Below the pieces are notes generated by a model, which worked only from the letters and a program-made list of their open reading frames with translations, had not been told where the DNA came from and did no database searches. A DNA stretch of 64,000 nt from an uncultured Pseudomonadota bacterium (GTDB taxonomy: Bacteria > Pseudomonadota > Alphaproteobacteria > RF32 > CAG-239): contig CADAAN010000006.1 of the NCBI GenBank assembly GCA_902785935.1, forward strand, positions 4,309 through 68,308, read 5' to 3'. Below, one piece after another: positions 59,995 to 61,230 of this stretch (position 1 is the first letter of the stretch; each line of letters starts with the position of its first letter). The position numbers were made by a program, and so were the translations under genes.

Positions 59995-60609
59995 TTAGTA
60001 GAATTTCCAAGAAACCGTTGCTTGTTCGGTGCATGTAGCTACAGCACCTGTACCCGAAGCTCCGCCCATCGGATAAGGTTTACCCTCATCAGCACCTAGT
60101 ACTTTACCTTTGGCATAATTTGTACCGGTAGAAGCTTCAATTTCTACACCGATAAAACCCGAACCGGCACCCGAACCAAAATCAGCCGTTGCAAGTGCAA
60201 TGCAAGCCTCCTTAGGTAATCCTTTGTAACTGATTACAAAGGCTGTTGGTTTTGCATCACCAGTAATTGCTGTATTGACAGCAGAAATTGTATTTGAAGT
60301 AGCCATAGCTTCTAAAATTTGAACACTTCCTTTAAATGGGTTTGTTAAAGCGGCAGGAGATGTACCCATTACAGGCGGAACAATTCCTAAACTGACAGCT
60401 TGTGTCGCCAAGCCGGCGTAGTTACCCTGCTGTCCATACATTGTTCGGATGTTTGTCACAAGCATTGTGATTTGTTCCATTGTCGTGTTGAGTTTGTGTT
60501 TGAACATCGCTTTTGAATAGCCTGCCAAACCGCCGGCTGACAAAACACCGATAATCGCCAAAACACCAAGCATTTCAACCATTGAACGACCATTTTGATT
60601 ATTCTTCAT
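59995..60609 (-). CDS. Type IV pilin-like protein, paralog 2 (second gene of a two-gene unit)
   Basis: MKNNQNGRS|MVEMLGVLAIIGVLSAGGL prepilin-type N-terminus; terminator ccgcgggt...acccgcgg downstream. Confidence 0.6.
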   Translation of the reverse strand: MKNNQNGRSMVEMLGVLAIIGVLSAGGLAGYSKAMFKHKLNTTMEQITMLVTNIRTMYGQQGNYAGLATQAVSLGIVPPVMGTSPAALTNPFKGSVQILEAMATSNTISAVNTAITGDAKPTAFVISYKGLPKEACIALATADFGSGAGSGFIGVEIEASTGTNYAKGKVLGADEGKPYPMGGASGTGAVATCTEQATVSWKFY

Positions 60610-60648
60610 TTTTTTATTCCTTTATTAAACTGTTAAAAACTTATATGA

Positions 60649-61230
60649 TTAATAGAACTTCCAAATGATTGTGTTTTTTGCACCTGCACAATCACTAACT
60701 GCATCAGCCATTTCATACGCTTTTCCCTCAGCACGTTTGTTTGCAATGCCTGTACCAATGACTATAGAAGATCCATCTGCTGAGGCTGCTGCAGTACCTG
60801 TTTTATCGGCTATAACACCTACAAAACCTGAACCTGCGCCTGAACCAAAGTCAGACGTTGCCAAAGCAATACAAGCTTCTGTTGGTAAACCATCAAAAGC
60901 GACTGTAAATGATTCATTGTTTGTACCTGTAGCAACAATATTAACATTACCCTTAAATGGGTTTGTAAGTGTGGCTCCACTACCCATAACAGCCGGAACA
61001 ACACCAAGACTTGATGCTTCTGTATTTGTTAATCCCGCATAATTTCCCTGTGTGCCGTACATTGTACGGATATTCGTCACAAGCATTGTGATTTGATCCA
61101 TGGTGGTATTGAGTTTGTGCTTGAACATGGCCTTTGAATAACCTGCCAAACCGCCGGCTGACAAAACACCGATGATGGCAAGTACGCCAAGCATTTCGAC
61201 CATACTACGGCCGTTTTCGTTATTTTTCAT
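60649..61230 (-). CDS. Type IV pilin-like protein, paralog 3
   Basis: First about 60 aa identical to paralog 2; preceded by family-B leader copy B3. Confidence 0.6.
   Translation of the reverse strand: MKNNENGRSMVEMLGVLAIIGVLSAGGLAGYSKAMFKHKLNTTMDQITMLVTNIRTMYGTQGNYAGLTNTEASSLGVVPAVMGSGATLTNPFKGNVNIVATGTNNESFTVAFDGLPTEACIALATSDFGSGAGSGFVGVIADKTGTAAASADGSSIVIGTGIANKRAEGKAYEMADAVSDCAGAKNTIIWKFY

Follow-up and report, generated by a model that had tools for sequence, protein, structure and literature searches.

What are three pilin-like proteins for in a stretch of bacterial DNA that holds no gene for building a pilus? The stretch, called the window here, is 64,000 nucleotides long and corresponds to ~24.6-88.6 kb of the rumen metagenome scaffold STEW19-1_SAMEA5383944 scaffold_539 (89 kb; GC ~40%), which comes from an uncultured alphaproteobacterium of the RF32 lineage. 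The source genome is covered by 74 kb on this one scaffold, namely the window and the 10 kb upstream of it, and about 5-10% of each related genome was sampled. The initial annotation, made from the DNA letters, described three open reading frames (ORFs) with a type IV prepilin-like start, two of them in tandem, and offered major pilins, competence pseudopilins and pilin-like adhesins as options. The three ORFs are present at the positions it gave, all on the minus strand, and encode proteins of 193, 204 and 196 aa (Table 1), referred to below as the first and second pilins of the tandem pair and the third pilin. Its remark that the window lacks pilB/C/D/Q-type genes also holds, as Pfam annotation of the called genes finds none. 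Among the options, the major pilin fits best. We consider it probable that the products of the three genes are major pilin subunits of the type IVb class, that they belong to a family specific to the lineage, and that the genes are gated together with those of leucine-rich repeat (LRR) adhesins by structured RNA leaders. All structures reported below for the products of the window are predictions.

The N-termini of the three proteins read MKNNENG↓RSMVEMLGVLAIIGVLSAGG (first), MKNNQNG↓RSMVEMLGVLAIIGVLSAGG (second) and MKINEIG↓RSMVEMLGVLAIVGVLSAGA (third), with the arrow at the predicted cleavage site. In each, a polar leader of 7 residues has Gly as its last residue and is followed by RSMVEMLGVLAI(I/V)GVLSAG. 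A class III signal is defined by a leader ending in Gly, a Glu5 and a tract of ~21 hydrophobic residues (PMC4471445). In the window proteins the leader is short (7 aa, within the range of 6-26) and ends in Gly, and G↓RSMVE puts Glu at +5 in a hydrophobic tract that continues with MLGVLAIIGVLSAGGLAG. Cleavage after Gly7 is predicted to give a mature protein that starts with Arg and carries Glu at +5. The class III prepilin signal proposed in the initial annotation, with this cleavage site and this Glu, is supported by the sequence, by family models and by the predicted fold. An alignment of 47 family members (A4) shows no variation at G7, R8, S9, M10, V11 and a pair of cysteines, and conservation of at least 90% from E12 to V22; in the subfamily of the third gene (A5), conservation is at least 90% at Gly7 and E12 is invariant. 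The more than 60 pilin genes recovered from related loci all carry the family signature, G↓RSM(V/I)EMLGVLAI(I/V)GVLS, and leader lengths in the family, judged by upstream stops or start codons, appear to be ~5-12 aa.

Conservation is distributed unevenly along the proteins. Scored as majority-residue conservation in 20-residue blocks of A4, residues 1-60 reach 0.92, 1.0 and 0.91, residues 101-120 only 0.19 and residues 161-200 0.42-0.44. This is the typical pilin pattern of a conserved buried helix and a variable exposed surface. The two invariant cysteines (C136/C193 of the 204-aa protein, equivalent to C120/C181 of the 193-aa protein) bracket the C-terminal region and align with the cysteines of bundlin. 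In the third pilin, 31 of the first 40 residues match, while the overall identity is only 35%.

The first pilin matches the Pfam families PilS (E 7.8e-14) and Bundlin (E 6.8e-13), and the second matches Bundlin (E 1e-13) and PilS (E 7.6e-9), all above gathering; the pair scores 52.3 and 49.5 bits for Bundlin (PF05307; cut-off 22.3) and 36.1 and 52.3 bits for PilS (PF08805; cut-off 22). The third pilin falls below the gathering thresholds of both families and is joined to the pair by profile-profile comparison, in which the two pilin subfamilies match at E 6e-38, and by fold only. When the 47-member profile was compared with PDB, bundlin BfpA (1zwt) was matched over residues 47-189 with E 2.6e-10, and PilS and TcpA were matched as well. 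In the AlphaFold (AF2) model of the 204-aa protein (pLDDT 84, pTM 0.77), residues 9-58 form a helix, which is accompanied by a beta-sheet. Each of the 16 top Foldseek matches of this model in PDB is a type IVb major pilin (the CFA/III CofA pilus 9iuf, TcpA 8uhf, PilS and CofA). For the models of the 204-aa and 196-aa proteins together, type IVb major pilins (CofA, TcpA, PilS) make up almost all of the structural matches. The models show, at the level of prediction, the pilin fold of a long N-terminal helix packed on an antiparallel beta-sheet. Structure prediction and comparison with pilin classes, suggested in the initial annotation, place the globular domains with type IVb and not with PulG or ComGC.

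Protein length had been read as a peculiarity of these genes, and on this point the initial annotation was wrong. Since the proteins belong to type IVb, whose prepilins classically have ~180-200 aa (PMC4471445), a length of 193-204 aa is not anomalous. The Tad/Flp pilins (type IVc; ~50-80 aa) can be set aside on size, and no Flp family is among the Pfam results.

Among characterized type IVb pilins, bundlin of enteropathogenic E. coli is the best sequence match with a solved structure. It is of similar size and shares the blocks tnPf.Ge and l.k.AC..LAt..G with the window proteins, but the identity is below 25%, and the proteins described here have a shorter leader and an Arg at +1. BfpA is encoded at the head of a plasmid operon of 14 genes, among them the one for its own peptidase, BfpP. 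The sequence identity to CofA (CFA/III) and TcpA (9iuf, 3s0t, 8uhf, 1oqv) is only 9-20%. Their leaders comprise 25-30 residues, their +1 residue is Met, and their genes lie together with those of their machines on plasmids or pathogenicity islands. The likeness to the R64 thin pilus and to Salmonella Typhi PilS lies in the PilS domain, which scores above gathering, and in PilS structures being among the top fold matches. The genes described here differ from the R64 and PilS systems in being chromosomal, in occurring in at least 4-8 copies per genome as dispersed tandem pairs far from a machine, and in having structured RNA leaders. A shufflon-type PilV adhesin, as in R64, was not seen here.

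The tandem proteins are 73% identical overall. They had been described as identical over about 60 residues, which is nearly right, as 57 of the first 60 residues are identical. Over the corresponding 60 codons the DNA is identical at 149 of 180 positions, with 23 synonymous and 3 non-synonymous codon differences. Recent gene conversion was considered as the cause of the matching N-termini and rejected, because 23 of the 26 differing codons are synonymous; this ratio argues that the N-terminus of the pair is held by purifying selection. The block DFGSGAGSGF does occur in both tandem proteins (at residues 126 and 142), as noted before, but it is located in the middle to late part of the proteins and not at the C-terminus, and it is conserved family-wide and not particular to the pair. 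The tandem genes read as one operon, as the spacer between them has a ribosome-binding site but no copy of the leader that precedes the first gene. A Shine-Dalgarno-like AAGGA/AAAGG lies 6-9 nt 5' of each of the three pilin ORFs.

A precedent for adjacent, related pilin genes with identical or nearly identical N-termini is the PilE1/PilE2 pair of Streptococcus sanguinis. The tandem major pilins of this bacterium form heteropolymeric pili, and Gly-1 is needed for their processing and Glu5 for their assembly (PMC6497953). The S. sanguinis proteins differ from those in the window in being type IVa pilins of a monoderm, encoded inside a pil locus, and co-assembly of the window's pair is suggested by analogy.

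The family is large. A protein database search gave 5,147 relatives at E ≤1e-3, almost all without names. The pilin homologues come only from metagenome-assembled genomes (MAGs) of uncultured Alphaproteobacteria from ruminant rumen or colon, with at least one (HGM16767) apparently from human gut. One MAG (locus-tag prefix IJ830) has at least 8 paralogs among the top 120 matches, and a scan of species-representative genomes found 40 pilin loci in ~14 MAGs, with up to 7 loci in a single MAG. The genes mostly form tandem pairs amid housekeeping genes, for example between DUF192 and EngB-YidC or between ZapA and MutL. Two short PilS-like pilins, P0358 and P0346, are both solitary and not in a pil operon. 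In the literature, nothing relevant was found on the motif GRSMVEML, on pili of RF32, or on riboswitch candidates tied to pilin or LRR genes.

The initial annotation made its proposal depend on a prepilin peptidase and an assembly system elsewhere in the genome. On this point, a peptidase of the A24 family is conserved in close relatives, and neither such a peptidase nor an assembly system was found in the 74 kb of the source genome that were searched. Motif scans of related MAG loci identified Peptidase_A24 genes (E ~1e-16) a few kb from pilin genes. The A24 family has 548 homologues of ~220-250 aa, some of which are named prepilin peptidase in Alphaproteobacteria MAGs. One A24 gene shares a 118-kb contig with a pilin pair; this contig and the window have the same GC content and share 78-81% identity in lptB and kdsD. 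In the near and distant relatives that were followed, the A24 peptidase is always a lone gene and not part of a pil operon. Among the A24 genes (~230 aa) are L037:14653-15405 (-), L050:7401-8090 (-) and L051:10001-10693, the last with LRR_5 genes and their leaders on both sides.

The assembly machine was sought with Walker-A, GE(I/M)RD, A24 and secretin motifs, and by phmmer with VirB11 and the six machine proteins of a related rumen contig, L106 (50% GC; also GCA_016648615.1). The phmmer searches covered all ORFs of 109 loci and found only VirB11 genes. ORFs of 250-750 aa with a Walker-A motif near pilin genes were considered as assembly ATPases and rejected, since all are housekeeping genes (ABC-F, Era, RecF, YchF, Ffh, ClpX, Lon and others). 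The assembly ATPase of L106 had no match in IMG/VR.

L106 is the locus in which the pilin family stands next to a machine. Its P0353, a distant member of the search list of the third gene, is the last of four pilin genes, and these pilins carry GRSMIEML / GRSMIEMLGVLAI(I/V)GVLS and share 35-45% full-length identity with the family of the window's tandem pair. Ahead of them lie genes for TcpQ, a PilN-family secretin (TIGR02520, 285 bits against a cut-off of 287.65), PAP_PilO, PilP, a 516-aa GspE/PilB-like ATPase and a GspF-like platform protein. This order of secretin, PilO, PilP, ATPase, platform and pilin is that of the R64 and Salmonella Typhi pil systems. Because the L106 pilins follow an R64-type operon, the family with this signature is tied to a bona fide type IVb machine, in another lineage. 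A pilin gene beside an assembly operon, the classical arrangement, was found only in L106 and neither in the window nor in any of the related 40%-GC loci.

Several observations weigh against the reading of the three genes as type IVb major pilins. The window and the adjoining 10 kb upstream on its scaffold contain no T2SSE, T2SSF, A24 or secretin gene, which leaves these 74 kb without a peptidase as well as a machine. Around the more than 60 pilin genes sampled in the 40%-GC lineage, the flanking DNA searched (to ~10 kb from the genes; 1.09 Mb) yielded no assembly ATPase, platform or secretin gene, and the only machine lies on a 50%-GC contig of a different lineage. The A24 proteins have no Pfam match at E ≤0.01 to the N-terminal methyltransferase-associated domain, and N-methylation is doubtful because the A24 domain alone was detected in them. 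The 7-residue leader of the window proteins contrasts with the ~15-30 residues of classical type IVb prepilins. We know of no precedent for Arg at +1, and cleavage, polymerisation and attenuation are all steps that we infer. Among these points, the leader and the +1 residue can be put in context. An Arg at +1, invariant in A4, agrees with the rule that the first mature residue of a type IVb pilin is other than Phe, and length criteria for the leader and the prepilin are no longer considered valid for type IVb (PMC4471445). Judged by sequence, a 7-residue leader together with Arg at +1 is unusual for a type IVb pilin.

The missing machine gives room to the alternative that survives best, although we regard it as unlikely. 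The proteins could be pilin-like surface proteins without a pilus: the peptidase would have been kept while the R64-type machine was lost or never present, and the proteins would act as membrane-anchored or short-pseudopilus adhesins, much like the sugar-binding proteins with class III signals of the archaeal bindosome. This alternative would account for the lack of assembly genes around the pilin genes of the lineage and on the scaffold, for a peptidase that always stands alone among housekeeping genes, and for the co-regulation of the pilins with surface proteins and not with machinery genes. Class III signals on proteins that do not form filaments are known, the bindosome being an example (PMC4471445). 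It agrees poorly with the first 60 residues, which are extremely conserved over thousands of paralogs, with Gly-1 invariant and Glu5 near-invariant. Such conservation points to filament packing and recognition by a machine, as a mere membrane anchor would tolerate more change. In addition, full-length homologues lie directly behind a complete machine in L106, and the search sampled only about 5-10% of any one genome. In type IVa systems, pilin genes dispersed far from the machine are common.

That the proteins are pseudopilins of a type II secretion system (T2SS) or of competence (DNA uptake) is very improbable. One member of the family is named 'type II secretion system protein' by the NCBI pipeline and some are named 'pseudopilin PulG' by JGI, and there are weak N-terminal matches to the GspG, GspH and PpdD-type models. 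These matches are confined to the N-terminal helix and, at 12-22 bits, remain far below cut-offs of 80-400 (GspG 12.2 bits against 88.85, GspH 14.2 against 80, and PpdD-type models 16-21 against 138-158). The globular domains match Bundlin and PilS and fold like type IVb pilins, pseudopilins typically have 100-150 aa, and the machine of L106 includes a PilN-family type IVb secretin, PilO and PilP.

A still smaller chance is given to use of the pilins by the type IV secretion system (T4SS) of the lineage, which has giant beta-flower-repeat VirB10-like proteins and VirB11. Leader A and a pilin gene follow directly after virB11 in L028 and L069 and lie 7 kb downstream of it in L009, and VirB11 is an ATPase of the T2SSE family. 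There is also a functional link between R64-type type IVb pili and conjugation. However, the pilin genes are scattered beside dozens of unrelated housekeeping genes, so that some of them would be expected to adjoin virB11. The sole T2SSE-family genes in the flanking DNA are clear VirB11s (TIGR02788, E 8e-43), and the three pilins of the window are not near any T4SS gene. To our knowledge, VirB11 ATPases do not polymerise class III pilins. The T4SS loci themselves (L028:421-9982, L009:1-3250 and L069:1-738) encode beta-flower-repeat proteins of ~1,400 aa, one of them fused to TrbI/VirB10, followed by VirB11. An ordinary Sec signal on unrelated secreted proteins, to which the short positively charged N-region and the following hydrophobic stretch might point, has a negligible probability and is refuted as far as computation goes by the conserved Glu within that stretch, the continuous ~50-residue helix of the models, the homology of the whole globular domain to Bundlin and PilS, and structural matches that are type IVb pilins. 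Genuine Sec signals of this genome can be seen on the LRR proteins of the window, described below, and serve as a contrast.

The type IVb major pilin reading also includes the regulation of the genes. The initial annotation reported that the pilins share leader families, A and B, with LRR genes, and these families are real, blastn having recovered recurrences of 61231-61516 (A) and 52844-53067 (B) in the window. Leader A, ahead of the tandem pair, has several hairpins and two long-range helices and ends with the hairpin CCGACCGCU...GGGGCGG and a UUUU run, which is longer in other copies. A promoter-like TTGACA-17-TTAAAT at 61548-61520 was recognized by eye only. Leader B, which precedes the third pilin, consists of a P1 hairpin, a long closing helix that encloses a junction with two hairpins, and then the terminator hairpin CCGUUUUU...AAAACGG followed by U8. 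It has the fixed-spacing signature CGAATAA-N6-CTG-N8-CAGTT-N3-YRGCTCC, after which come the terminator hairpin and U run, and the hexamers of its promoter (Table 1) are conserved in the leader B alignment. In each copy in the window, the terminal hairpin and U run lie just 5' of the ribosome-binding site; a simple terminator scan did not flag these terminal hairpins.

The structure of both leaders is supported by covariation. For leader A (23 distinct sequences), 34 of 56 consensus pairs are compensatory, 95% of cells are paired as against 41-50% when slid, and the covariation score is 0.60 as against ≤0.16 when slid. For leader B (13 distinct sequences), 20 of 33 consensus pairs are compensatory, 92% of cells are paired as against 41-55%, and covariation is 0.61 as against ≤0.16. 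For both, neither the percentage of paired cells nor the covariation score came up to the observed value in any of 500 shuffles, and the copies ahead of the pilins have fold z-scores of -7.0 (A) and -4.8 (B). Leaders A and B recur in related MAGs ahead of pilin genes, LRR genes and a few small genes (for example L003:3961-4230 and L051:1189-1460 for A; L025:17734-17908 and L038:3660-3822 for B), and in distant MAGs leader B is also found ahead of small HTH-like genes. The leaders are structured cis-regulatory RNAs laid out like transcription-attenuating riboswitches, with attenuation itself as their presumed mode of action. Rfam 15 gave no match at gathering over the whole window and nothing credible over the leaders at E ≤10.

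A known functional parallel is the c-di-GMP riboswitch of Clostridioides difficile pilA1, which is likewise a terminator-ended structured leader on a pilin gene and belongs to a class that also precedes other adhesin genes. The c-di-GMP classes and other known riboswitches were considered for the leaders and rejected, as no credible Rfam match, including GEMM-I/II, was obtained at E ≤10; the leaders described here are also larger and of another architecture (~180 and ~285 nt).

The LRR genes that share the leaders are five BspA-type LRR_5 genes (Table 1). Their proteins have ordinary Sec signals, for example MKKYVWVFGLILSYNAQA, and share a strongly conserved C-terminal tail of ~25 residues, (K)RIYTIDEAN-VAGK-N-F-IRYR, which looks like a sorting or anchoring signal. 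For the gene at 40816-41874, the true start is probably the downstream MRKVIYIF, because the listed GTG falls inside leader A. Because the same leaders precede the pilins and the BspA-type LRR genes, the pili and the LRR adhesins would form one co-regulated surface regulon.

The tandem pair carries a record of exchange between species. The identical 204-aa protein is also encoded in L003 and L004, between DUF192 and EngB/YidC, so that the pilin pair in these relatives occupies a chromosomal site different from that in the window. When the window is compared with L003, the ~1-kb block 60034-61052 is ~99% identical (58-60 of 60 positions per 60-nt window), while the leader and the 5' part of the coding region agree at 30-53 of 60 (50-88%), the 3' flank is ~85% identical, and beyond it there is no similarity. 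The Mla housekeeping genes of the window and of the L003 contig are only 78% identical. In a closer relative, with Mla genes 94% identical, the pair at the DUF192 site is only ~70% identical to that of the window. Since a ~99% identical block sits in genomes whose Mla genes are only 78% identical, the comparison shows a recent transfer of the variable portion of the pilin operon from one species to another, brought about by recombination within its conserved flanks. A chimeric assembly was considered as the source of the block and rejected, because at least two samples yielded each arrangement in independent assemblies.

Dispersed pilin copies with a conserved 5' and a variable 3' part, and recombination in the conserved segments, are also found in the pilE/pilS system of Neisseria. 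The copies described here differ in that they look complete and expressible, with their own leaders and start codons, and the exchange takes place between species and not as conversion from a silent to an expressed copy.

These elements can be assembled into a mechanism. From what is generally known of class III signals, the prepilin would insert in the inner membrane through its hydrophobic N-terminal helix, and a stand-alone A24 peptidase, whose gene is seen in relatives, would cut the 7-residue leader after Gly7 to expose Arg1 and Glu5. The subunits would then polymerise through the near-invariant helix with the help of a machine of the R64/Salmonella Typhi pil type (PilN secretin, PilO, PilP, PilQ ATPase and PilR platform), as seen in one distant relative only. 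With their near-identical helices, the products of the tandem genes may co-assemble or substitute for each other. The exposed variable domain, which differs among paralogs, is exchanged by recombination anchored in the conserved 5' coding region and the 3' flank, and this may provide adhesive or antigenic diversity. Transcription would be gated by the leaders with their terminator-like hairpins, A before the pair and B before the third gene, in response to a signal. A bolder proposal, possible but in our view doubtful, is that leaders A and B are two new riboswitch or attenuator classes that switch an adhesion regulon made of species-crossing pilin cassettes, with an unprecedented 7-residue signal and Arg at +1 that a stand-alone A24 peptidase would cut, and BspA-type LRR proteins, giving programmed surface variation for attachment to rumen hosts or partner cells.

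Table 1. Pilin genes, leaders and associated features of the window (positions in the 64,000-nucleotide stretch).
Feature	Position	Strand	Details
Prepilin, first of tandem pair	60649-61230	-	193 aa; leader MKNNENG; Arg +1, Glu +5; C120, C181
Prepilin, second of tandem pair	59995-60609	-	204 aa; 73% identical to first; C136, C193
Third, divergent prepilin paralog	52253-52843	-	196 aa; different six-cysteine globular domain; own orthologue subfamily
Spacer within tandem pair	60610-60648	-	39 nt; ribosome-binding site, no leader copy (blastn)
Exchanged cassette block	60034-61052	-	~1 kb; from ~codon 60 of first pilin through spacer and nearly all of second
Leader A	61231-61516	-	~285 nt; ahead of pilin pair; several hairpins, two long-range helices
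Leader A copies	41685-41937, 30594-30788	-	ahead of LRR_5 genes at 40816 and 29407
Leader B	52844-53026	-	~180 nt; ahead of third pilin; P1 hairpin and long closing helix
Leader B copies	16038-16236, 21513-21676, 46103-46199	+, -, -	ahead of LRR_5 genes at 16266, 20594 and 45087
Leader B sigma-70-type promoter	53033-53061	-	TTGACT, 17 nt, AATAAT, upstream TG; promoter scan 10/12
BspA-type LRR_5 genes	16266-17324, 20594-21493, 29407-30540, 40816-41874, 45087-45986	+, -, -, -, -	
Intrinsic-terminator-like hairpin downstream of pilin pair	59903-59926	-	terminator scan: 9 pairs, 7 of them G-C
Truncated IS200-like Y1 transposase ORF directly downstream of pair	59540-59770	-	Pfam Y1_Tnp, E 4e-18

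The surroundings of the two pilin loci differ. The pair is flanked by an Lnb_N gene and the IS200-like fragment, and the third pilin by the trigger factor and DUF4167 genes. The hairpin region downstream of the pair is kept in the related loci L003 and L008. The Y1_Tnp match of the fragment spans profile positions 2-61 of 121, and this truncated transposase beside the pair is possibly a trace of the origin of the locus. The listed GTG start of the trigger-factor ORF (50133-51551, +) lies within the tRNA-Leu(TAG) gene at 50127-50211 (+), which is why the downstream MKVTEEK is taken as the real start.

Elsewhere in the window, the left end (1-9552) looks like an integrated island, with a tyrosine integrase (8395-9552), AbiEi-type genes, HSP70/MreB-like, glycosyltransferase and ATP-grasp genes. 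The 10 kb upstream of the window (L111:950-6476) hold TerB-N/TerB, BrxC/BrxD-like and helicase genes, resembling a defence cluster, and no pilus genes. The ORF 55491-56090 (+) encodes 199 aa with ~7 tandem repeats of ~21 residues (…ELIKLYIS…) and a weak DUF4116 match; the antisense ORF 55470-55964, which mirrors it, is probably spurious.

Most of what is known of type IVb pili comes from enteric pathogens and IncI plasmids, where single operons encode them. The family of more than 5,000 members described here has the same predicted fold in another usage, in abundant uncultured commensal Alphaproteobacteria of the ruminant and human gut: the copies are many and dispersed, the leader is short and precedes an Arg at +1, and the variable domains are traded across species. 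The two leaders, with their clear covariation and coherent targets, make the search for their signal directly testable. The family also offers a handle on how these unstudied bacteria attach to their surroundings.

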